Source of the DNA: a virus
Taxonomy: Duplodnaviria > Heunggongvirae > Uroviricota > Caudoviricetes
DNA: 64,000 nucleotides
Virus record (IMG/VR): IMGVR_UViG_2585427708_000005
Strand: one strand, 5' to 3'
Below, piece by piece: positions 3,795-64,000 of this stretch. The position numbers and the translations under genes were made by a program. The notes below the pieces were generated by a model that was given only the letters and a program-made list of their open reading frames with translations, had not been told where the DNA came from and ran no database searches. Position 1 is the stretch's first letter. Every line of letters starts with the position of its first letter.

Positions 3795-3870
3795 TGGTGG
3801 CCCCTACCGGACTTGAACCGGTGACCGTGCGATTATGAGTCGCCAGCTCTAACCACTGAGCTAAAGGGCC
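3795..3870 (-). tRNA. tRNA-Ile2-like (anticodon CAU, lysidine type; Met cannot be excluded)
   Basis: 76 nt, perfect 7-bp acceptor stem with one G-U, D-arm GCTCAGTGGTTAGAGC, anticodon loop CTCATAA, T-loop GGTTCAAGTCC, encoded CCA; near-identical in arms to E. coli ileX as remembered. Confidence 0.75.
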
Positions 3871-3897
3871 GGATTACTGCCAATTTTGCTTACGCTT

Positions 3898-4725
3898 TTA
3901 TTTCACCGGAACAAACGGAACAGCGGTATTACTGGTCATATACTGCGGTAATGTACCGTTCCATTTGTTGATCGCTTCCAAGTCCATAACACCGGGGTTC
4001 TGGCGCAGAGCTTCACCACGTAAACGAATGGCATCAGCTTCGGCCTGGGCTTTTGTGCGAATAGCATCAGCCTGTCCGGCAGCTTCCGCGCGCAGCATGT
4101 TGGCCTCTGCTTCACGTTGTTTGACCTCTTGCTCGCGTTGCAGGGTTTTTTGGTTTGCCGTGACTTTGGCGTTAATACTGTCAATAACTGTTGGCGGGTA
4201 TTCTGGCTTACCTACATAAGAGAGGCTCATCACCTGAATGCCGATTGGCGTCATTTCTTCCTGAATGTCTTTAAGGGCTGCATCAAGCAATTCAGATTTG
4301 CCACCGTCGATAAATTTGTCGGTGGTCATTTTGCTGGCTAATCGGTTCAGAGCATCTGCAACCTTCTGGCGTAGATCGGTATCAGTAATATCATCTACAC
4401 CTTTGCGATAGGTCTGAAATACCGTTGTGACTTTTGCTGGATCAACCTTGTAGGCTACGCCGATGTGGTAACCAATGGTTGTTCCGTCGCTCATCTGGAA
4501 GCTGAACGGCTCATCGTATGTCTTCATTTGCTTAAAGGTCGGGAAGATATAAACTTCAGTATTCAAGCCTGTCCAGTAGCGACCAACGCCAACTACTTCA
4601 CCGATACCTTTATCATCCCCCAGCTTATTTACTTTGATCCCTACGTTACCTGGCTCTACCCGATCGCATCCGGTCAGACATAAAGAACCCAAAATAATCG
4701 CTGCACTAATCAACGTTTTTTTCAT
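3898..4725 (-). CDS. SPFH/band-7 domain lipoprotein (275 aa)
   Basis: signal peptide with lipobox LCLTGC; SPFH-like core followed by Ala/Glu/Arg-rich coiled coil (QREQEVKQREAEANMLRAEAAGQADAIRTKAQAEADAIR). Confidence 0.65.
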   Translation of the reverse strand: MKKTLISAAIILGSLCLTGCDRVEPGNVGIKVNKLGDDKGIGEVVGVGRYWTGLNTEVYIFPTFKQMKTYDEPFSFQMSDGTTIGYHIGVAYKVDPAKVTTVFQTYRKGVDDITDTDLRQKVADALNRLASKMTTDKFIDGGKSELLDAALKDIQEEMTPIGIQVMSLSYVGKPEYPPTVIDSINAKVTANQKTLQREQEVKQREAEANMLRAEAAGQADAIRTKAQAEADAIRLRGEALRQNPGVMDLEAINKWNGTLPQYMTSNTAVPFVPVK

Positions 4726-4942
4726 TAATTAATTTCCTGGTTTTTTCACGAAAAAAGACTACTGCGAAAGCCGGGTAAATGAGCGCGAGAAGGACTCCCA
4801 ACAATACAAGTATTGTGCTGTTAGATGAGATCATATTTGGCAAAAGCCAAACATACAGAACCAGTGACACAATCAAACAGAGGACGGCATAAATATATAA
4901 CCGCACCCATAGCGTTCGACATTTGTTCGGATTGTTCTGCAT
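4706..4942 (-). CDS. small inner-membrane protein (78 aa, two predicted TM helices), overlapping start of SPFH gene
   Basis: hydrophobic segments YIYAVLCLIVSLVLYVWLL and ILVLLGVLLALIYPAFAVVFF; 20-nt overlap with downstream SPFH gene suggests coupling. Confidence 0.4.
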   Translation of the reverse strand: MQNNPNKCRTLWVRLYIYAVLCLIVSLVLYVWLLPNMISSNSTILVLLGVLLALIYPAFAVVFFREKTRKLINEKNVD

Positions 4943-5815
4943 CCTCTCACTCCATTATTTAACGAATAAAAAAGCTGCGGTGCCGGGTTCCTCCCGGTGT
5001 CCTTTGGCTGGTTATCCACCGTGGACGTGGAAACAAGGAGAAATAATGGACAGATATAACCATTTCCCCGCGTGCGCTTAGCCGCATTCACCGCAACGGA
5101 AAGAGCATTCTTGGTGGACCTGTAGATTGGGATATGAACCCGTTACAGGAGAATGCTCTTACCTGTTACGTGCTCCGTTTCGTGGAGCTAACGGCGGGTG
5201 ATCAGACCGCACCAGACTGGACTTATTTCAGCGTTATGCTCATGCCAGAGAATCAAACTGTGATGGTCGGTGCTGAACTCCGACACAGGGTTGTAGCAAG
5301 CCCCGCAAAGCGCGCACTACTGTAGTTGCGGCACATCAGCCTGTGCATTCACCACAATGTTGAGAACACTGGTTGTCACGCGGCAACGCAACATTTATTC
5401 GTAGATTGGGATATGACCCCGTTACGCCAGTGTTCTCAACGTTGTAGTTGTTATGCGTATTCTCTTACTAACCGCACACCAATACATTTCCCATCACGTT
5501 CATTTGTCTCGAAACGTGAATACTTAAGTTCGCCGTTAATAATCGCTGTTACAACCCGTATCCCGTTAAACGCCCACATATTTCGCTCCATTTACACACA
5601 TTACCAGTCGCCGGTTACGGTTCCGGCCAGGCCTCTTCCTCAACGGGGTGTTCTCCATACGGACTACCGTTTATTGGTCGTTCCTGCGGTTTATGTTGTG
5701 AAGCCAGATGCTTATCTTCTGGTTGCTTCTAAGATCTGCACTTCATCACAACGGTAAGAGCACTCGATGCATTTAAGCCAGGCCCCATAAGGGAGAATGC
5801 TCTTACCTGTTATGT

Positions 5816-5891
5816 TGGTGCCGATTAACGGGATCGAACCGCTGACCATTCGCTTACAAAGCGACTGCTCTACCAACTGAGCTAAATCGGC
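5816..5891 (-). tRNA. tRNA-Thr (anticodon UGU)
   Basis: 76 nt; acceptor GCCGATT/AATCGGC, D-arm GCTCAGTTGGTAGAGC, anticodon loop TTTGTAA, T-loop GGTTCGATCC, encoded CCA. Confidence 0.75.
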
Positions 5892-5895
5892 AATG

Positions 5896-5982
5896 TGGTG
5901 GGGAGTGATGGAGTCGAACCACCCGAGTCGCAATGACAGTAGATTTACAGTCTACCCCGCTACCCCTACGGACTAACTCCCC
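5896..5982 (-). tRNA. type II tRNA-like gene, tRNA-Tyr (GUA)-like, D-arm atypical
   Basis: 87 nt; perfect acceptor GGGGAGT/ACTCCCC, anticodon stem-loop GTAGA-CTGTAAA-TCTAC, long variable arm resembling E. coli tRNA-Tyr, T-arm GGTGG-TTCGACT-CCATC, encoded CCA. Confidence 0.5.
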
Positions 5983-5987
5983 TAAAG

Positions 5988-6062
5988 TGGCGATGGTGGG
6001 TGGATTCGAACTACCGACCAGTTGGTTAACAGCCAACTGCTCTACCGCTGAGCTACACCATC
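5988..6062 (-). tRNA. tRNA-Asn (anticodon GUU)
   Basis: 75 nt; acceptor GATGGTG/CACCATC, D-arm GCTCAGCGGTAGAGC, anticodon loop CTGTTAA, T-loop TTCGAAT, encoded CCA; one A-C mismatch in T-stem. Confidence 0.7.
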
Positions 6063-27363: not shown

Positions 27364-27380
27364 AAATTTATTAGAGCAAA
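27364..27380. promoter_or_regulatory. C1 operator-like site upstream of kilA-repL (Op53-like)
   Basis: AAATTTATTAGAGCAAA, 16/17. Confidence 0.6.
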
Positions 27381-27458
27381 TTTTTCTAACTCGATCCAGA
27401 TCGGGTTGGACGATCTGCTCAGAAACCTGCCAGTTTGCTGGCAGGTTTTTTTCTTTTG

Positions 27459-28502
27459 TTAACCTATTGCTACTGGTTTTAACAAACCAGCATCAAGTAG
27501 CTTGCGAGTTAACCACTGCTGGCCTTTACCCGTTAATTGGGGCGTCAGCCGTATCTGGTAGCCATTTTCATCATCCAGCACCACTTCTTTCACCGTGAAA
27601 TACCCGGCGTTGATGTACTGTTGGCGCGGTACGTTTTTGCGCGCTCCAAAAGCCATGAGAATGCCATTCTGGCGCAACCATGAGAAAAGGGCGTTTTGCT
27701 TAAGTCCAACGACCTTTGCAAAGTTCCCGATCAGGATTCCATTAGCCACTGATACCCGGTCGGCAAAATCGACTTTAGGGGCAGCGGCCACCAGCTGTTG
27801 TTCCAGCTGCATTTTCTGTTCTGCTAACTCGGCAGCCAGGCGTAGAGCTTCTGGTAATGTTTGGGGGATCGATGGGGCAGGGGAGTTTGCCTGCTGCAAT
27901 TCTTCCAGTTTGTCGATCAGCGAACGGCGGACCGCTTTTGACTCGCGCGCGGCGACTCGCAAGGCTTGTTTGTAGGTCATGGTGATGACCTCAAAAGAGC
28001 GCCCAGCCCTTGTGCCATGGGATTTTGCACTTTTTGTGTAAAATTCACCTTCAAGTTCATCGAGTATTTTTTCGATGAATTTATTGTTTCTAACCTCTGG
28101 TTCTCCACATAACTTGCGTGCCTCATTGACCATCTTCAACAATGTTTGGCTGTCGATTGTGTCTCCGGTGTTGGGGATGACATTCACGGCTGGTGTTGGC
28201 GTAGCTGACGTAACAGGTGCTGGTTTCTCAACATTCAAATTTTTACCGGTCACTCTATGTGCCTCCTTTCTCATTTCTGCTGCCACCGTTGCGTAACGTA
28301 GACGTCCTTGTTCAATCAAATAATCCCTGATCTCGGCTATCAGTAGCCTGTTGATCACTGCCTTATCTGTTCGGGTATAAAAACGCCTGGTTATCATGAA
28401 ATAGTTGGCAATTGCGCCGGGGATCTCCCGCGTCGGCATACAGGCAGTATGCAGGGCGATTGCTTCGGCTATGTCATTACGGGTGACGAGAGGTTTTTTC
28501 AT
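27459..28502 (-). CDS. ant: antirepressor Ant (AntA N-domain plus KilAC C-domain)
   Basis: 347 aa; start codon overlaps icd stop (translational coupling); C-terminal KilAC domain. Confidence 0.8.
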   Translation of the reverse strand: MKKPLVTRNDIAEAIALHTACMPTREIPGAIANYFMITRRFYTRTDKAVINRLLIAEIRDYLIEQGRLRYATVAAEMRKEAHRVTGKNLNVEKPAPVTSATPTPAVNVIPNTGDTIDSQTLLKMVNEARKLCGEPEVRNNKFIEKILDELEGEFYTKSAKSHGTRAGRSFEVITMTYKQALRVAARESKAVRRSLIDKLEELQQANSPAPSIPQTLPEALRLAAELAEQKMQLEQQLVAAAPKVDFADRVSVANGILIGNFAKVVGLKQNALFSWLRQNGILMAFGARKNVPRQQYINAGYFTVKEVVLDDENGYQIRLTPQLTGKGQQWLTRKLLDAGLLKPVAIG

Positions 28503-28720
28503 AAAACCCCCTGAACGTCGGCAGAGAAGGGGAGGTTCCAGTAACTAAGTGAATTGCGCGAGTTAGTTGAAAAACGGGCAGTAAAAATGCAGGGGCCATC
28601 AGGCAATTGAGAGCGTGCTTCGTCTTCAGTTGCTGCGATAACGAAGTGATAGTGGTGTTTTTTACAGGAATAGAAACGCCAGATGAATTCTGGGCGTGTG
28701 CAAGGATTGGCATTAACCAT
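28499..28720 (-). CDS. icd: Icd-like small protein (73 aa) upstream of ant
   Basis: 73 aa, coupled to ant; paralogue at 63667-63888; SD embedded in c4 target box. Confidence 0.6.
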   Translation of the reverse strand: MVNANPCTRPEFIWRFYSCKKHHYHFVIAATEDEARSQLPDGPCIFTARFSTNSRNSLSYWNLPFSADVQGVL

Positions 28721-28769
28721 AGTTACGGCCTCACTAACAGGTTTAACAACCTGCTACCCGCTGTCAAAC

Positions 28770-28850
28770 AGGTGGCAGGACGTGACAGGGTTGACAGACT
28801 GGCGTTAGTGAAACCAGCAGGCCGAAGCCTCCCCATCACGCCCCACCATA
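28770..28850 (-). ncRNA. c4: c4-like antisense RNA region of immI module 1 (boundaries approximate)
   Basis: contains boxes CACTAA and CTGTCA complementary to TTAGTG/TGACAG targets found upstream and at the icd RBS; conserved with module 2 except in these boxes. Confidence 0.35.
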
Positions 28851-29033
28851 ATTCGGGCGTAACGCGGTTTACGGACACAAAAATACCGCAATATCGGAAA
28901 TCTGCGGTTGTCCGCACTAACATTCAGGCTGTCAAACCCGGTCGCAGAATTTGCTACGACGGCGGAACTATAAGCCTGAACGATTAAAAGGTCAATATGA
29001 TGCGAAAAGATAGCATTCGTGACTTAAAAATAC

Positions 29034-29050
29034 AAATTTATTAGAGCATT
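29034..29050. promoter_or_regulatory. C1 operator-like site upstream of c4-icd-ant (Op51-like)
   Basis: AAATTTATTAGAGCATT, 16/17. Confidence 0.6.
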
Positions 29051-29146
29051 GTTTGTTTAATAAATGCACAATTGGATCTAATAACCTCTTTTTTTTAAAG
29101 GCGAAAATATGTACCCTAAATGAGTTATAAGGCAGGTGAGGTTATA

Positions 29147-29794
29147 ATGAGAAAACTATTACTACCGTTATTATTTATGGCTGGGACTGTTAATGCAGCA
29201 TCAAGCGTAAAGGAGATTTGTACCGATTATACGAAATACCTTGGGCACGTTTACGGCTTTGCTGTCAGTGAAGACGAATCCATGCGCAAGAAGTTACTGT
29301 CAGATATGAAGCGCCTTAAACTTTCTGAAGCGATGGTGCAGCAGGAACTGTATAAAGTCTCAACCAACGCAAATGCTAAATACCAATATTCTCGCCTATT
29401 AAACCCCGATGCAAATGAGATCAATCGAAGCACTTTCGATTATATGGTAAAGGCATGCGAAACCGCTCCTGATTTTGCTATCCCTAGCTGGGGTGTGCTG
29501 GTGGCGAGCAATGCCGTTAATAAAGAAGATGTTGGAAGAAATGGCATTGACTCAATCAGAAATGCCCCAGGAATGCGCCATCAAAACGTGCAGGGTACGC
29601 TTGAAGAGCGGGCCAGGGGGCCGGGTACAAACTCCCCAATGGGAAACCTCTCACCAGAGGAATTGCAAGAGTATAACCAACGGATGGAGCAGTATGAGAA
29701 AGCGGCACGCGAACAAATGGAACAACAAAAGAACGGCTCACTTAATACCTTCCAGCAAGGTTTAAAAGCGCTTAATTTACCCTATGAATGGTAA
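29147..29794 (+). CDS. secreted periplasmic protein, Sim-like by position (215 aa)
   Basis: signal peptide MRKLLLPLLFMAGTVNAAS; shares GMRxxxVQGTLEERARGxGT motif with Sit. Confidence 0.5.
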   Translation: MRKLLLPLLFMAGTVNAASSVKEICTDYTKYLGHVYGFAVSEDESMRKKLLSDMKRLKLSEAMVQQELYKVSTNANAKYQYSRLLNPDANEINRSTFDYMVKACETAPDFAIPSWGVLVASNAVNKEDVGRNGIDSIRNAPGMRHQNVQGTLEERARGPGTNSPMGNLSPEELQEYNQRMEQYEKAAREQMEQQKNGSLNTFQQGLKALNLPYEW

Positions 29795-29855
29795 ATATAT
29801 TATGGATAACCAATTAAAATATTGATAATCGTTAATATCCAAAGGAGATAAATTA

Positions 29856-30332
29856 ATGCGCATCAAACGATTTTTTCTAATTCTTGCTTTGCTTACTCCA
29901 TTTTCATCAATGGCAAATGTAAGCAAATGGTCAACCGGCGAGACTCATGGTGTTCGTTCTTATGCTGTTTCCAGCAAAGATAATTATACGCTTACATTTG
30001 AGTGCGATGTTGGATTTAATAATACGGATCCCAATCAAGTAGGAACACGACTACTCACTCTCATGAAAACAGAACCTGGCGGTGAGTCATTTGATGCTAA
30101 AAAAGAACAAATAACGCTGAAAGTTGGTGATGATGAATATCCTATCAGTTCTATCGGTTCCTCTGTTGGTGATAGTTACTGGTATGGTTTTTGGTCAGAT
30201 ACCCCTGATATGGAAGTTAAAACATTCGATGCATACGTAGACGGAAAAAAAATCGCAACATTTACGCTACGTAAGGCCGCAGAGCTTTTCAACGCGGCAC
30301 CTGAAGATGGCTGCCTGAAGCGCGCAAAATGA
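29856..30332 (+). CDS. secreted protein (158 aa)
   Basis: signal peptide MRIKRFFLILALLTPFSSMANV. Confidence 0.5.
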   Translation: MRIKRFFLILALLTPFSSMANVSKWSTGETHGVRSYAVSSKDNYTLTFECDVGFNNTDPNQVGTRLLTLMKTEPGGESFDAKKEQITLKVGDDEYPISSIGSSVGDSYWYGFWSDTPDMEVKTFDAYVDGKKIATFTLRKAAELFNAAPEDGCLKRAK

Positions 30333-41885: not shown

Positions 41886-42463
41886 TGACATTCAGAATGA
41901 GTGAACAATCACGGACCATAAAAATTTATAATCTACTGGCTGGAACCAATGAGTTTATTGGTGAAGGTGATGCATACATTCCACCTCATACAGGTCTGCC
42001 TGCAAACAGTACCGATATTGCCCCGCCAGATATTCCGGCTGGCTTCGTGGCCGTTTTCAACAGTGATGAGGCATCGTGGAATCTCGTTGAAGACCATCGG
42101 GGAAAAACCGTCTATGACGTGGCTTCCGGCGACGCGTTATTTATTTCTGAACTTGGCCCATTACCGGAAAATGTCACCTGGTTATCCCCGGAAGGGGAGT
42201 TTCAGAAGTGGAACGGCACAGCCTGGGTGAAAGATGCAGAAGCAGAAAAACTGTTCCGGATCCGGAAGGCGGAAGAAACAAAAAACAGCCTGATGCAGAT
42301 GGCCAGTGAGCATATTGCGCCACTTCAGGATGCCGTAGATTTGGATATTGCGACGGAGGAAGAGGCATCGTTACTGACTGCATGGAAGACATATCGGGTA
42401 TTGTTGAATCGTGTTGATACAACAGTAGCATCGGATGTTGAGTGGCCAGTCGCCCCGCAATAA
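41885..42463 (+). CDS. tail fibre assembly protein (Tfa/U-like)
   Basis: 192 aa; coupled to S (ATGA overlap); N-terminal pattern typical of Tfa chaperones. Confidence 0.8.
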
Positions 42464-45194: not shown

Positions 45195-47114
45195 ATGGAA
45201 CAGTTCAATATCAATAAAGGGGTGGCGATCAAGCCTGGGCTTGACGTGCTTCCCCCGCCAGTGACTGATGATGAATATCGCGCATTAATGGCCGGTGAGG
45301 ACCGCTATCTGATGACGGAATCCAACACCCTGGAGGAAATCGAGGCTACGTTCTTCTATGACACGCCGATCCACTGGTGTGCTACGGATTTACTGGAGGC
45401 GATTAGTTCTACTCGTTTGCAGCTACACCGGACCATGCAGGCATTTGTCCGGGCATTGAACCAGAAGCTGAATGGTACCGGAATCTCTGCGGGGAGTGAT
45501 AAAACGGGGGACGTGGCCCAGAACGGTGCACGCGCGATCGGCGGGGCTGAAATTGGCCGGGCGCGTAACGTTAACGGGCTGCCGGTTCTGCCAGCCATTA
45601 TTCCGCTCAGTGATGGTCAGACTATCAGCATTCTGTTTCATAGCCCGACAGCGGAAAACCGGATCACCAATAGCGATACGCTGATTGCTTTCCAGTTCTT
45701 ACTGAATAAAAAAGACGTTACTCATACCGTTGCTCCGATGAGTGGACGTGATATGACGCTGGCGCAGGTCACCATGAAACTTGCCAACCTTGCAGAGAAA
45801 AACTCGGCAAAATTCCAGCGTGCGCAGAAGAAGAAAAAAGCCCTGGTTGATGAAATAACCCAACTACAGGCTGACAGTGACCAGAAAGAGGATGCCATGA
45901 GCGACCTCGCGGATCAGGTGGCAGCGGTAGAAGGCCAGAAGGCAGATCTGGAGCAGAAAATTAACGTGGTTGCTTCGGAAGCGGATTCTCTTTATCAAGA
46001 AAATGAGCGTTTGCAGGCGGAGATTGATCAGCTCAATCGCACTGGTGGGCGCGATACCATTGCTCCTGCGGGGATGACTGGTGGGCACTCTCGCGTGCTG
46101 ACGGATCGCCTTGCCAGTATCAAAAATCGTATGCATATGGACGGGGAAGCGACGCTCAGTAATGGTGCATCAATGAAGCAATTCATTGGGGATGGCGAAG
46201 GGTATATCCAGTTAACCGATCCGGATGGCAGCGTATACATGATCAAGGCTAAATCCATACAGGGTGTGGACATGGCAGATGCGATCGGCAAGCTGTTTAA
46301 AGCCTATAAAGCGGGTAATGTATCGGAATACCTGGTCCAACCAGAAGAACATAAACCGGAAAACGTCGAACCTGAACCAGCGGAGGATACCGGTAGCTCT
46401 TCGCCTGAACCAGAAGTCTCTGTAGGTGCATATCGATATGCCCTGCAAATGCGTCCGGCGGCCCCTGGCGCAATACCTGAAGGTAACAAAGCAATTCTGC
46501 CGCGCCCTGATGAAGGTGACCCGTATTATGAATATGCACGCTACGGCATTGCTACTTACGATACCCCGCTTTCTGATCAGCAAATGAGTGAGTACGACCT
46601 GAAGTTATTGCCTCGCGAGGATTCTTTCGACTTCCTGGCGAAGACACTTACTAATGGTCCGTTTGGCAAATATGCACAAAAAGCTCTGGAGCTGGCCACC
46701 AGCTCACCAGACGAGTTCCGCGTAATGCTGAAGACTCAGTTTCAAAAAACTTTCCCCAATATTGCGTTTCCGGGGGGCGCTGGCACCGAGAAAATGGTGC
46801 AGAGCATGATCAATGCATTGCAGGCCGAAGTCGGTGAGATTACTCAGCCAGAACCGGCCCCGGCACAGCCTGATGAAACGGTTAGCGAAGCAGATGCAGA
46901 GGCTAATAAAGCCATTGAATATCTCAATAACGTGATGGATATGCAAAGCACTGACATGGCGGAGATCCGTAACGCCCGGGGCAATGTCCGGGAAGCGATT
47001 GCAGCCCTTCAGGCTGCCGGACGTTTTGAGGAAAACGAAGAGCTGGTTAATGGCGCTGCTCGCCACCTGGCTGATCTGCTGGTAGCAATCCAGAAAGCGG
47101 GGGTAGCGGCATGA
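45195..47114 (+). CDS. darA: DarA-like antirestriction/internal head protein precursor
   Basis: 639 aa, identical in length to P1 DarA as remembered; position after lydAB-hdf. Confidence 0.6.
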   Translation: MEQFNINKGVAIKPGLDVLPPPVTDDEYRALMAGEDRYLMTESNTLEEIEATFFYDTPIHWCATDLLEAISSTRLQLHRTMQAFVRALNQKLNGTGISAGSDKTGDVAQNGARAIGGAEIGRARNVNGLPVLPAIIPLSDGQTISILFHSPTAENRITNSDTLIAFQFLLNKKDVTHTVAPMSGRDMTLAQVTMKLANLAEKNSAKFQRAQKKKKALVDEITQLQADSDQKEDAMSDLADQVAAVEGQKADLEQKINVVASEADSLYQENERLQAEIDQLNRTGGRDTIAPAGMTGGHSRVLTDRLASIKNRMHMDGEATLSNGASMKQFIGDGEGYIQLTDPDGSVYMIKAKSIQGVDMADAIGKLFKAYKAGNVSEYLVQPEEHKPENVEPEPAEDTGSSSPEPEVSVGAYRYALQMRPAAPGAIPEGNKAILPRPDEGDPYYEYARYGIATYDTPLSDQQMSEYDLKLLPREDSFDFLAKTLTNGPFGKYAQKALELATSSPDEFRVMLKTQFQKTFPNIAFPGGAGTEKMVQSMINALQAEVGEITQPEPAPAQPDETVSEADAEANKAIEYLNNVMDMQSTDMAEIRNARGNVREAIAALQAAGRFEENEELVNGAARHLADLLVAIQKAGVAA

Positions 47115-47476
47115 CACTATCAGCTATTGAGTTAATGGATCTCAGCGATAAGTTGGATGCTCTGATGTCCAAAGCGGCTACCGCGAGTGGCATGGAGTTG
47201 CTGGATATCAGCGATGAAATTGACCAGATCATGCAACAGATGGGGTACGGCGCGTCCGGCGGCAGTAGTGGCGAGGAAAAACAACCTTCGGTACATGATG
47301 GTGTGCCAAAACTGGTTGCTGATTTCCTGGCTGATAAATTCGTCGATCAGAGCACAGATGCATTTATCGGTACCTTGCAGGACTTGAGTCAATATGTTGG
47401 CACATACATCGACCTGGACCAGGTTAAACAGCACACGGCGGCATGGATAGCCGCCAACATTAAAGAGGCAGCATAA
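47111..47476 (+). CDS. DdrA-like small protein (121 aa)
   Basis: coupled to darA (overlap); acidic. Confidence 0.5.
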   Translation: MTLSAIELMDLSDKLDALMSKAATASGMELLDISDEIDQIMQQMGYGASGGSSGEEKQPSVHDGVPKLVADFLADKFVDQSTDAFIGTLQDLSQYVGTYIDLDQVKQHTAAWIAANIKEAA

Positions 47477-47488
47477 GGCGTAACAGGG

Positions 47489-50476
47489 ATGAGCTTAAGC
47501 GATCAGGTGGTAATGGCCACCAGCATAGAAACGCTGATCGAGCTGCTAAAGAACCTGCCCGATTATGGGCGGGTTTCGTATGTGGTGACAGCGAAGGGAG
47601 ACGAGGTAAAAACAGCGTTTGATATCGTCGATGCCTCAGTTCTTTTGGTATCCAATACTCTGGATGGGAAAATTAATCCAGACTATCCCCAGGAACTTCA
47701 GCCGCGCGACCGGACCCGCGCATCCAGCCTTCTTCAGGTTAACCAGATATCCAAAGATTTGCGGCCTGCTCAGCTTACCGATTCCGGTTTATCCAGCCAT
47801 GGCGCGCCGATAATTGGTGAGGACAATGCCGTTGAGTCAGGTAATGGACGGACCATGGGGATCATCAAAGCCTATCAGGACGGCAATGCGGATCGGTATC
47901 GTGAGTACCTGATTGATCATGCGACCGAATTCGGCATACGACCTGAAAAGGTTGAATCAATGACGGCTCCGGTACTGGTGCGCCGCCGGTTAACTAAGGT
48001 TGACCGCGTTCAGTTTGCCAAGGACTCAAATATTTCTGATCTTCAGGAAATGGCAGCCAGTGAAAAGGCTTTTGTTGATGCCGACAGCATAACACCGGCG
48101 ATGATGGCGCTTTTTAACCCGTCAGAAAGCGGAGATCTGCTTAGCCGCAGTAATGACGCGTTTATTCGCGGATTTATGACGCAAGTTGGTGCCACACAGG
48201 CGGCTGGCCTTGTAACTGAAGATGGGCGACCAACACGGCAACTTGTTGACCGTATACAAAACGCGATCTTTGCCAAGGCATATAAGGATGCGCGCCTGGT
48301 AAGGATGGTTGCAGAAGAACCTGATCCGGATATGCGTAATGTTCTGACGGCGCTTAATGCGGCAGCCAATGATTTTGTCCAGATGCAGGCTTTATCAGGA
48401 GAAGCGCACAAGCAGGCTGTGACAACTATTGTTGATGGCATTGAGACATCGGATAGCCTCGATAAAAAGGCGCTGGCGGCATTGAAAGATGCGGTAGACC
48501 TGGTAAGGCAATCGAAGGAGTCAGGCCAGCATATTACCGATGTTATTGCTCAGGGGGATATGTTCAGCGAAACGGCCCCGGAAGTGAAAGCACTCGCGTT
48601 GTTCATCGTCGCGAATAACCGTAGCGCGAAGCGTATGGCCACCGCCTTTAAGTTGATGGCGCAACGTATCAATGATGAGTTACAGCACCAGGGCCAGGCG
48701 CTCGGGGATATGTTTGGCGGCGGCGATGTGTCGTTACAGGATATCCTTCGCCAGGTATCTCAGGAACTGGAAAACGAAGGTATGCAAGGGATATCTGGCG
48801 GTCTTTTCGAGTCAGCTTCTGGCGGTAGTTACAACGGTGTTGCTCCATATACCAGCTTGCTATTACATCGGGCATCCGGCATCAAAGACATTATTCATCT
48901 GATCAGGCTGCTTTCCCGTACAGATCCCCAGGATGAACAGCTTGTTCAAGTGCTTGCGCATTTTGTTCGAATGCCTGTTGCCGACGTGAAAAAATGGTGC
49001 CGATTATTCGGTATCAGCAATTCGTTACTTCGCGGCTTGTTAAATCACGCATCCTCCCTTGGGCGCGATGGCTTTGACGAGATAGCGCAGGCGATAAAAA
49101 ACGGAGATATGCCACCAGCTATTGACTGGTTTTCCATTCGCCCAACCAGGGTGAAAGCATTCCTTAGCGCGGCGCATTCGGCATCACCATTGGCAGAAAT
49201 GGTTCAGAGGTTATCGCTCATATTCACAGACCATACCGCGTTGGGTGATCTGACTCTGGACGAGATGAAGGAAGCCTCCATTCAGTGGGCCGATCAACAA
49301 AATGAGGTTAACTCAGACTTCTTGCCAGCATTCAGGAAGGCCGTTAGTAAAGCGGATGATGCCCGTGGAATTCTGAAGGCATTTAAGGCATTGCAAAGTC
49401 GTGTTAATAAACATGTCGGTGATATCGATGGGGTAACGGCGGAAGGCCGGGATATCCTTAAAGAGCACGGCATAACGCCAGAGTTTATTGATGAGATCAG
49501 GACTGATATGCAGCGTGAGGTCGTATCGTCCCTGCAAATCGTAGCCAGAGCGTTGGCGGATGCTAATCCGAAGAGTGCGGCCATTGTTAACCGGGTTATT
49601 GGTGATATTGAAGCATCGGAGGGCATGGGGGCGCTGAAACTCTTCCTTTCGCGAGCGTTTAATCCTAACGGCAATATTCTCCCTGGCATTATTGGTGAGG
49701 CTAAAAAGTATGTCAGTGAAGAAGAACTTGAGCAGCTTGACCAACTACTTAAGCGATTCTCATATAACCCGCAGACACGCTGGCAAATGAATCAGCGAAG
49801 TATGGGTTCGGTCCACGAGAAAGTGTTATCTGCCATGAACAGTGCGATCGCAAACTCATCCGTATCTGAAGAAAAAGCTCTTGAGTGGGCCGACTCTTTT
49901 ATCACAGAAGAAGTGGAAGAAGTCCGCGCTGGACAGAATGGTGGGATAGACCTGCGCAAGGAACTTGCTGATATTTATCGCCTGACCGGCGGGAAAATAT
50001 CGACCTTATCAAAGGTAGTTCACCACCAGGGAAGGGCATATGCAAATCTAAATGGTGTTGTTGCTGTCAATTTGAACGATAAAAATGCAAGTGCACTGTG
50101 GCACGAGCTGGGTCATCATCTTGAGTACAGTAACCCTGGTTTGTTAGAGAAAGCCCGGTCATTCCTGAAGGCCAATGTTGAAGGGGATAAGCCATCATTC
50201 GTCAATATCGGTGGGCGTGGCAAGCCTGAATGGTGCTTCAGATCTCGATTGAGTAATATTTATATGGCGAAAGTATACCCGCCAGCCTCAGTAAGTAATT
50301 CCGGGAAAATTCGGCAGAAATCACCGACTATTTCCAAAACGTCAGCAACGGAAGTATTCTCTATGGCTCTTCAGTTGTATCATGACAAAGAGGCCGCTGC
50401 CGCATCACTGATGAATGGTGACGGATTGCTGGAACTGTTATTAGGTGTGGCAAAGGAGCTAAATAATGCAGATTAA
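47489..50476 (+). CDS. DdrB-like large protein (995 aa)
   Basis: position in Dar operon; no catalytic motif recognised. Confidence 0.5.
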   Translation: MSLSDQVVMATSIETLIELLKNLPDYGRVSYVVTAKGDEVKTAFDIVDASVLLVSNTLDGKINPDYPQELQPRDRTRASSLLQVNQISKDLRPAQLTDSGLSSHGAPIIGEDNAVESGNGRTMGIIKAYQDGNADRYREYLIDHATEFGIRPEKVESMTAPVLVRRRLTKVDRVQFAKDSNISDLQEMAASEKAFVDADSITPAMMALFNPSESGDLLSRSNDAFIRGFMTQVGATQAAGLVTEDGRPTRQLVDRIQNAIFAKAYKDARLVRMVAEEPDPDMRNVLTALNAAANDFVQMQALSGEAHKQAVTTIVDGIETSDSLDKKALAALKDAVDLVRQSKESGQHITDVIAQGDMFSETAPEVKALALFIVANNRSAKRMATAFKLMAQRINDELQHQGQALGDMFGGGDVSLQDILRQVSQELENEGMQGISGGLFESASGGSYNGVAPYTSLLLHRASGIKDIIHLIRLLSRTDPQDEQLVQVLAHFVRMPVADVKKWCRLFGISNSLLRGLLNHASSLGRDGFDEIAQAIKNGDMPPAIDWFSIRPTRVKAFLSAAHSASPLAEMVQRLSLIFTDHTALGDLTLDEMKEASIQWADQQNEVNSDFLPAFRKAVSKADDARGILKAFKALQSRVNKHVGDIDGVTAEGRDILKEHGITPEFIDEIRTDMQREVVSSLQIVARALADANPKSAAIVNRVIGDIEASEGMGALKLFLSRAFNPNGNILPGIIGEAKKYVSEEELEQLDQLLKRFSYNPQTRWQMNQRSMGSVHEKVLSAMNSAIANSSVSEEKALEWADSFITEEVEEVRAGQNGGIDLRKELADIYRLTGGKISTLSKVVHHQGRAYANLNGVVAVNLNDKNASALWHELGHHLEYSNPGLLEKARSFLKANVEGDKPSFVNIGGRGKPEWCFRSRLSNIYMAKVYPPASVSNSGKIRQKSPTISKTSATEVFSMALQLYHDKEAAAASLMNGDGLLELLLGVAKELNNAD

Positions 50477-63332: not shown

Positions 63333-63349
63333 ATTGCTCTAATAAATTT
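63333..63349. promoter_or_regulatory. C1 operator, exact consensus ATTGCTCTAATAAATTT, upstream of second c4-icd-ant module
   Basis: 17/17 match; weaker second site at ~63255-63270. Confidence 0.65.
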
Positions 63350-63539
63350 GATTTATTGAAACAAATAAACTACTATTGGACGCCAGACTATTGATCTTCC
63401 TGTTGTTCAGGCTTATAGTTCCTACGTCGTAGCAAATTCTGCGACCGGGTTTAGCAGCCTGAATGTACATGCGGACAACCGCAGATTTCCGATATTGCGG
63501 TATTTTTATGTCCGTAAAACCGCGTTACGCCCGAATTAT

Positions 63540-63615
63540 GGTGGGGCGTGATGGGGAGGCTTCGGCCTGCTGGTTTCATGTACGCCAGTCTGCTAACCCC
63601 GTCACGTCCTGCCAC
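63540..63615 (+). ncRNA. c4-like antisense RNA region of second immI module (boundaries approximate)
   Basis: boxes CATGTA (63576-63581) and CTGCTA (63589-63594) complementary to TACATG/TAGCAG targets at 63452-63471 and 63620-63654. Confidence 0.35.
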
Positions 63616-63666
63616 CCGTTTAGCAGCGGGTAGCAGGTTGTTAAACCTGTACATGAGGCCGTAACT

Positions 63667-63888
63667 ATGGTTAATGCCAATCCTTGCGCACGCCCTGAAT
63701 TTATCTGGCGCTTTTACTCCTGCCAAAAACGTCACTATCACTTCGTTATCGCACCAACAGAAGATGAGGCACGTTCTCAGCTTCCGGATGCTCCCTGTAT
63801 TTTCTCTGCCCGCTTTTCTACCGATTTGCGCAATTCTCTCAGTTACTGGTGCCTCCCTGTTAACGCTTCTGCTCAGGAGGGGCTATGA
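63667..63888 (+). CDS. Icd-like small protein (73 aa), paralogue of 28499-28720
   Basis: 73 aa, ~80% identical to module-1 Icd; stop overlaps ant-like start (ATGA). Confidence 0.6.
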   Translation: MVNANPCARPEFIWRFYSCQKRHYHFVIAPTEDEARSQLPDAPCIFSARFSTDLRNSLSYWCLPVNASAQEGL

Positions 63889-64000
63889 GAACGTCATTAG
63901 TCACCCGTGAAGAGATGATCGAGGCAATTGAACAGCACACTGCCTGTATCAGTACCAGGGATATACCAGGCGTTATTGCCAACTACTTCATGATCACCAA
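63885..64000 (+). CDS. antirepressor Ant-like protein, N-terminal fragment (continues beyond window)
   Basis: MRTSLVTREEMIEAIEQHTACISTRDIPGVIANYFMIT aligns with N-terminus of Ant at 27459-28502. Confidence 0.6.
   Translation, partial: MRTSLVTREEMIEAIEQHTACISTRDIPGVIANYFMIT

Follow-up and report, generated by a model that had tools for sequence, protein, structure and literature searches.

The minus strand of positions 27459-29050 in the window (the whole stretch of DNA analysed, 64,000 nucleotides) almost certainly carries immI, the immunity operon of a plasmid prophage of the P1 type, and this operon is expected to function as it does in phage P1. In a megablast comparison, the interval 27400-29150 was 98.3% identical to phage P1 over all 1751 nt, with P7, RCS47, SJ46 and others coming next at 92-97% identity. 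Between 28690 and 29060 only four substitutions separate the window from P1 (at 29051, 29020, 28963 and 28937), and none of them touches a functional element; the operator, a1/b1, C4 and a2/b2 agree with P1 at every base, and the a and b boxes are those of P1 specificity. Features were placed by alignment to the P1 annotation in AF234172, in which immI (Op51-P51a/b-a1b1-c4-a2b2-icd-ant1/2) occupies positions 48140-49731; order, spacing and sequence are shared with the operon described here, which we call module 1. As in P1, kilA and repL lie downstream, and module 1 is syntenic with these genes and with the Op53 operator (27364-27380). The upstream divergent gene differs from that of P1, being not sim beyond simA but a 224-aa ORF (29120-29794). 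At the level of the replicon, the window is 99.97% identical to the Escherichia coli 2014C-3011 plasmid NZ_CP027590.1, and the region is present in approximately 575 PLSDB plasmids. We found no evidence that contradicts the immI reading. The preliminary description of this DNA had also interpreted the region as an immI module, an interpretation supported by the identity with P1, the Rfam matches, the fold and the complementarity set out below, and the order and coordinates it gave for the elements agree with both the sequence and the annotated P1 record. Because module 1 displays every sequence-testable defining feature of a P1/P7-type immI operon, the finding is one already known, and its virtual identity with phage P1 makes it real but ordinary: a correct re-identification that serves mainly as an annotation anchor for a P1-type plasmid prophage window. 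The elements of the operon are as follows.

29034..29050, minus strand: C1 repressor operator Op51 (Oc4), AATGCTCTAATAAATTT, the identical 17-mer being found at P1 protein_bind 48140-48156
29007..29036, minus strand: putative C1-controlled promoter P51a (P2c4), carried over from the P1 annotation by alignment; -35 at 29036..29030, overlapping the operator, and -10 TATCTT at 29012..29007
28967..28995, minus strand: constitutive promoter P51b (P1c4), TTGACC, 17-nt spacer, TATAGT, from a promoter scan and the P1 annotation
28935..28929, minus strand: box a1, TTGACAG, equal to the P1 a1 misc_binding feature
28921..28915, minus strand: box b1, GTTAGTG, equal to the P1 b1 misc_binding feature
28771..28847, minus strand: mature C4 RNA, 77 nt (RF01695), identical to P1 misc_RNA 48343-48419
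28810..28804, minus strand: b', CACUAAC, a hairpin loop of C4
28797..28791, minus strand: a', CUGUCAA, an unpaired stretch of C4 adjoining the b' hairpin
28767..28761, minus strand: box a2, TTGACAG, equal to the P1 a2 feature
28738..28731, minus strand: box b2, GTTAGTGA, equal to the P1 b2 feature and running into the icd Shine-Dalgarno sequence
28732..28729, minus strand: icd Shine-Dalgarno sequence GAGG, overlapped by b2, 8 nt before the icd ATG
28499..28720, minus strand: icd, 73 aa, encoding a cell-division inhibitor and serving as the leader ORF of ant; annotated as Icd-like in the source plasmid
27459..28502, minus strand: ant1, 347 aa, its ATG overlapping the icd stop codon (ATGA)
28253, minus strand: start of ant2, in frame with ant1, mapped from the P1 annotation

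The 17-bp asymmetric operator Op51 carries one mismatch to the C1 operator consensus and overlaps the putative upstream promoter P51a. It is among eight C1-operator-like sites in the 64-kb window, where 0.47 would be expected, and the C1 operator that the preliminary description had claimed at 29034-29050 has exactly the sequence of P1 Oc4/Op51. The second promoter, P51b, scored 10 of 12 matches in the promoter scan and lies where the P1 annotation has P1c4.

C4 was among the earliest trans-acting antisense RNA systems to be described. In the window it matches the Rfam C4 family RF01695 with 68.8 bits (gathering score, 45; E = 2.8e-11) over 28768-28853, and a direct comparison with P1 c4, as the preliminary description had advised, showed the 77-nt RNA to be 100% identical. 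The region had been called c4-like; a C4 RNA is indeed there, but on the evidence of the family match and the identity with P1 it is c4 proper. The minimum free energy fold of C4 is the three-way structure of the family, with a' and b' unpaired, and at -42.5 kcal/mol it is far more stable than shuffled sequences (-27.8 +/- 3.2 kcal/mol; z = -4.66). The complementary boxes reported at 28792-28810 are likewise present, except that a' reaches 28791 and not 28792. When six diverse C4 copies were folded to a consensus, 27 pairs were obtained, 9 of them with compensatory changes. The 5' end would be generated by an RNase P cut between 28848 and 28847; this processing, and repression of ant in vivo, are predicted, since C4 and the sequence flanking it are 100% identical to P1.

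C4 is exactly complementary to the a2/b2 pair over 7 nt at the a box and 8-10 nt at the b box. Duplexes between loops and cognate boxes have energies of -8.4 kcal/mol (a) and -8.7 to -11.7 kcal/mol (b), compared with 0 to -6 kcal/mol for boxes of other modules; these values come from loop-only probes, as probes that included stem nucleotides were uninformative (non-cognate energies of up to -23 kcal/mol). The strongest of these, b2:b' at -11.7 kcal/mol, extends to 10 bp and covers the entire Shine-Dalgarno GAGG. A stable fold and complementarity, on which the preliminary description had staked its reading, are thus both found. The arrangement TTGACAG-N5-30-GTTAGTG occurs three times in the 64-kb window, where 0.01 would be expected, and all three occurrences lie in this region: the two target pairs on the minus strand, and the C4 complement on the plus strand. 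The target boxes described at 28915-28934, upstream of c4, correspond to a1/b1 at 28935..28915, as in P1, and the second target pair, with one box at the icd Shine-Dalgarno sequence, is a2/b2, in which b2 overlaps GAGG.

Natural variants of the boxes prove, through unusually clean co-variation, that RNA-RNA recognition follows a two-site code. We compared 124 copies of C4, all with the same 21-nt core, taken from P1, P7, the window and IMG/VR loci collected by a 25-mer core search, and these fell into 13 a'/b' combinations. Within the P1 group there are two a alleles (TTGACAG and TTAGCAG) and six b alleles (GTTAGTG, GATTGTG, GTACATG, ACTTACG, ACGAATG and ACTTGTG), and 11 of the 12 possible a x b combinations were seen. 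Boxes were the exact reverse complement of a' or b' in 120 of 121 copies at a1, 120 of 121 at b1, 122 of 123 at a2 and 121 of 123 at b2; the two copies that failed were L064, which has a different architecture, at all four sites, and L044, at b2 only, where the contig ends. P1, P7 and a second module in the window (see below) are nearly identical over the leader and C4 except in the boxes, and the three copies of each box change together. Computationally, natural variation of this kind confirms the antisense mechanism as well as sequence alone permits.

The two protein-coding genes are equally close to those of P1, with 72 of 73 residues identical in Icd and 340 of 347 in Ant1. Ant1 matches the Pfam family ANT/KilAC (PF03374, 1.2e-30), and Pfam holds no family for Icd or RepL. 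The 73-aa icd gene had been described as translationally coupled to ant, and the icd TGA does overlap the ant ATG in ATGA. In the one difference at a start codon, ant2 begins with GTG in module 1 and with ATG in P1, which could lower the yield of Ant2.

The primary literature on C4 and immI is reportedly that of Citron and Schuster 1990/1992, Biere et al. 1992, Riedel et al. 1993 and Hartmann et al. 1995. On the strength of P1 genetics and biochemistry, we expect RNA processing, translational repression, polarity and the binding of Ant to C1 to operate in module 1 as in P1, by the immI mechanism summarised in PMC8198154, PMC8546580 and PMC12197685. In a lysogen, the C1 repressor on Op51 would shut P51a, and P51b, which lies downstream and is constitutive, would go on transcribing the leader and c4. 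The precursor would be processed to the 77-nt C4 RNA, its 5' end being cut by RNase P in P1, and b' in its hairpin loop and a' in its single strand would pair with b2 and a2 on the mRNA of their own operon. The b2 duplex would occlude the icd ribosome-binding site, so that icd would remain untranslated. Translation of ant1 would depend on that of icd through the ATGA overlap; the anti-repressor Ant1/Ant2 would therefore not be made, and C1 would stay active. The specificity of immunity would be set by the sequence of the a and b boxes, here of the P1 type.

Module 1 has company. The source plasmid contains three C4 genes and three icd-ant pairs, the other two modules lying as follows.

63333-64000, plus strand: module 2, adjoining mat, where P1 has ref
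outside the window, between pacB and c1 of the source plasmid: module 3

With two further c4-icd-ant modules in the same plasmid, module 1 is not necessarily the sole or the dominant module. Modules 2 and 3 encode Ant proteins of 370 aa with an ORF6N domain, which share 94% identity with each other and 56% with Ant1. The boxes of modules 1-3 differ, and non-cognate duplexes are weak. Module 2 shares its a box with P7 but has a third b box, GTACATG. Stacking is carried further in the Escherichia albertii plasmid p06-3542, which has five C4 modules, every one with a different b box. Across nine multi-module contigs or plasmids no b allele is shared between P1-group modules (P ~0.008 for a random draw), an avoidance that is suggestive only, since modules at different loci may be separate lineages. 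Extra icd/ant copies in such plasmids were noted by Venturini et al. 2019, without discussion of their C4 specificities.

These data bear on two other accounts of module 1. The immunity factor could be a small protein encoded by the 66-aa minus-strand ORF 28923..28723, which was the original reading of c4: the ORF exists, and it equals CDS 120-320 of X15639, deposited as "c4 CDS" (CAA33658). We regard this as exceedingly improbable. The deposition preceded the demonstration that C4 is an RNA, and the annotation is obsolete. Among 108 homologous copies the ORF is intact in only 19; 35 have no start codon, 53 are truncated or frameshifted, and one is a read-through. A 1-nt insertion in P7 and module 2 (GTAAAACCG against GTAAACCG) splits it into 56 aa and 38 aa and cuts the ORF on the other strand from 126 to 96 aa, yet all of the RNA elements are kept. 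Most of the variation falls in the boxes, where changes compensate one another at the level of RNA, and C4 was established as an RNA by Citron and Schuster 1990 and 1992 (as cited in PMC8546580 and PMC8198154). The protein reading is therefore rejected: there is no conserved intact ORF, and Pfam returned no match for either this ORF or its opposite-strand neighbour. The ORF list does contain both of the frames (28607-28987 and 28723-28923) that the preliminary description had called spurious but conserved with module 2. They are spurious, being frame-broken or devoid of a start codon in most homologues; their frames are not conserved, as the 1-nt indel breaks them in module 2.

The other account makes module 1 a redundant, decaying copy, with immunity run by the remaining two c4-icd-ant modules. 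The presence of three modules in one plasmid and the change of the ant2 start from ATG to GTG are in keeping with such decay, but its regulatory elements are all identical to those of functional P1, icd and ant1 are intact, and the module sits in the canonical place upstream of kilA-repL. Moreover, the box specificities of the three modules do not overlap, so that no module can replace the C4 of another. We consider decay very unlikely, and with elements identical to P1 and intact genes, the reading of module 1 as a pseudogene is rejected. An immI operon of the P1 type is the preferred reading, and a further proposal, which concerns the leader upstream of C4, extends this explanation and does not replace it. 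The a1/b1 boxes, whose role is labelled only "putative" in the P1 annotation (AF234172), may be part of an IsrK-type leader RNA, short and terminated, which acts as an anti-antisense RNA, or sponge, against a'/b' of C4. The relevant leader elements are these.

28915..28960, minus strand: leader RNA with a1/b1, Rfam c4-a1b1 (RF03163)
28960..28941, minus strand: leader hairpin GUCGUAG/CUGCGAC
minus strand, in the leader: hairpin CGGG-UUUGACAG-CCUG with a1 in its loop, b1 being single-stranded
28879..28908, minus strand: terminator-like hairpin ACCGCAG..GCGGU followed by AUUUUU, placed by alignment to the isrK model and presumed to act as a terminator
28914..28909 and 28877..28872, minus strand: outer stem CGGACA/UGUCCG around the terminator-like hairpin

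The leader scores 56.8 bits against c4-a1b1 (gathering score, 46.7). Positions 28960..28879 also align to the isrK model RF01394, terminator-like hairpin included; module 1 reaches 44.5 bits, short of the 50-bit gathering score, whereas module 3 scores 60.8 bits and Gifsy-1 79.3 bits. The hairpin and U-run recur in distant modules (module 3, L106, L064 and Gifsy-1), where the stem sequences differ. In module 1 the hairpin fails a simple terminator scan, and termination in this leader may be weak owing to the 12-nt loop and the short U-run. A minimum free energy fold of the whole 261-nt leader, in which the a1 hairpin pairs with a hairpin in the a2-b2 spacer (16/16 pairs), was rejected: it has an ensemble frequency of 0.008, and D6-type and Gifsy-1 modules lack the spacer hairpin.

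The case for the sponge comes largely from Gifsy-1, where a 69-bit C4 match follows directly after isrK, at transcript positions 103-186 inside orf45, and a b2-like box (TCACCGGAGG) lies on the anrP Shine-Dalgarno sequence. The compensatory pairs G28-C162 and G31-C159 of Hershko-Shalev et al. (PMC4825925) are exactly a1:a', and supplying IsrK in trans increased the translation of anrP by more than 100-fold (PMC4825925, Table 1). In double mutants the low basal expression was not restored (224 and 327 vs 4; PMC4825925), an outcome that the C4 reading predicts, since the wild-type a2 had been retained. The a1 mutation G28A in cis, on the other hand, raised expression (93 vs 4; PMC4825925), which a pure sponge model leaves unexplained, and the subthreshold isrK score of module 1, with its possibly weak termination, also tells against the proposal. 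On balance the evidence suggests that a1/b1 belong to an anti-antisense leader RNA, although we hold the full sponge reading somewhat more doubtful than not. Our literature search found no paper linking IsrK with C4; the correspondence could unify two literatures and give a1/b1 a function.

Together with the stacking of modules, these observations point to a broader scheme. The stacked modules may form a combinatorial C4 code (two a alleles x at least six b alleles, plus divergent types) of orthogonal locks, with the IsrK data reflecting a1:a' pairing that counteracts C4; we put this scheme only just short of an even chance. Since no two co-resident modules have the same b box, a single prophage would carry several antisense locks that are orthogonal to one another. 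If this is true, such locks probably widen the range of relatives to which the prophage is immune, and stacked orthogonal modules suggest how plasmid prophages broaden superinfection immunity. Unlike the textbook module 1, multi-module stacking and the link between IsrK and C4 may be new.

Apart from P1 itself, the closest known systems are those of P7, D6, Gifsy-1 and P22. The immI operon of P7, which is heteroimmune to P1, has the same architecture at ~93% identity but different boxes (a, TTAGCAG; b, GATTGTG, with matching a'/b'), module 1 having those of P1. In phage D6, the C4 core is identical and the a box is of the P1 type, whereas the b box is ACTTACG and the anti-repressor is an unrelated, Roi-like protein of 235 aa. 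The IsrK/orf45/AnrP system of Gifsy-1 in Salmonella resembles module 1 in its two-hairpin leader with a1 in the second loop, its terminator, its C4-family RNA, its a2/b2 boxes with b2 on the Shine-Dalgarno sequence, and an anti-repressor reached through an ATGA overlap; it differs in having neither icd nor a C1 operator, and in its published model (PMC4825925) the C4 region is a coding ORF and the leader an activating small RNA. Like C4, the sar RNA of P22 is a small antisense RNA that blocks anti-repressor translation (PMC12197685). It is made from the strand opposite its target as a cis-antisense RNA, whereas C4 is co-transcribed with its target on the same strand and recognises it through two short loop-target contacts.

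Directly beside mat, where P1 carries ref, the window has a second, complete immI module (module 2), and a third (module 3) lies outside the window, between pacB and c1 of the source plasmid (NZ_CP027590.1, whose coordinates are given as L124 and L125).

63333-64000 (+), continuing in L125 25575-27159 (-): module 2, complete immI
63333-63349 (+): module 2 C1 operator, perfect match to the consensus
63534-63619 (+): module 2 C4 RNA, 71.7 bits
63667-63888 (+): module 2 icd
L125 20237-21903 (NZ_CP027590.1 70237-71903): module 3, immI

Module 2 also includes an a1b1 leader, and its Ant protein (370 amino acids) contains an ORF6N domain. Its a box, TTAGCAG, is of the P7 type, and its b box, GTACATG, is of a third type; the module 2 C4 fully compensates for both changes. 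The boxes of module 2 and those of module 1, the operon of the window with P1-identical boxes, are predicted not to cross-react. The C4 of module 3 is divergent (75.9 bits), with AAGGCCAA as a' and ACCUUGGAC as b', and the icd genes of modules 2 and 3 are identical in DNA sequence from codon 10 on.

Such stacking reaches five C4-icd-ant modules in the P1-type Escherichia albertii plasmid NZ_CP034163.1 (95.7 kb; L128/L129), and all five differ from one another in the b box. In none of the nine multi-module contigs or plasmids examined did co-resident P1-group modules share a b allele, a pattern with P ~0.008 under random draw, with the caveat that the modules may represent separate lineages. 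Comparison of window 28731-28935 with IMG/VR loci L004-L123 showed that C4 specificities form a combinatorial set of two a alleles and six b alleles, 11 of the 12 combinations being seen, and that the C4 backbone outside the boxes is identical across those 11. At one contig end (L044), b' CATTCGT occurs together with b2 GTTAGTG, a possible natural mismatch.

The a1/b1 leader (28879-28960, -) appears to be homologous to the IsrK sRNA; the Gifsy-1 locus used for the comparison is L126 34076-34316 (-). The module 3 leader scores 60.8 bits with Rfam isrK, above the gathering score. A C4-family RNA (69 bits) lies within the published Gifsy-1 "orf45". The IsrK-orf45 base pairs G28-C162 and G31-C159 published for Gifsy-1 (PMC4825925) correspond to a1:a'. 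No paper linking IsrK to C4 was found in the searchable literature.

Among other RNA matches, the tRNA cluster at 3798-6062 (-) gave four, one of them weak (41.9 bits); P1 has been described with three tRNAs. A full-length Rfam "IS009" match (192 bits; 42228-42426, +) corresponds to L124 4176-4374, within a tail fiber assembly protein coding sequence of the source plasmid. NZ_CP027590.1, otherwise 99.97% identical, lacks a counterpart of 46602-48125 (~1.5 kb), probably an assembly gap, since the missing segment falls at the ends of the linearised record.

Further differences from P1 lie in and beside module 1. The internal ant2 start codon (28251-28253, -) is GTG, whereas that of P1 is ATG; the upstream Shine-Dalgarno sequence AGGAGG is retained. 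Where simA-simB-simC diverge from immI in P1, the window instead has two other ORFs (29120-30332, +), both with hydrophobic N termini: one of 158 amino acids, for which no Pfam family was found, and one of 224 amino acids, with a possible signal peptide and a weak, subthreshold PTPlike_phytase match.
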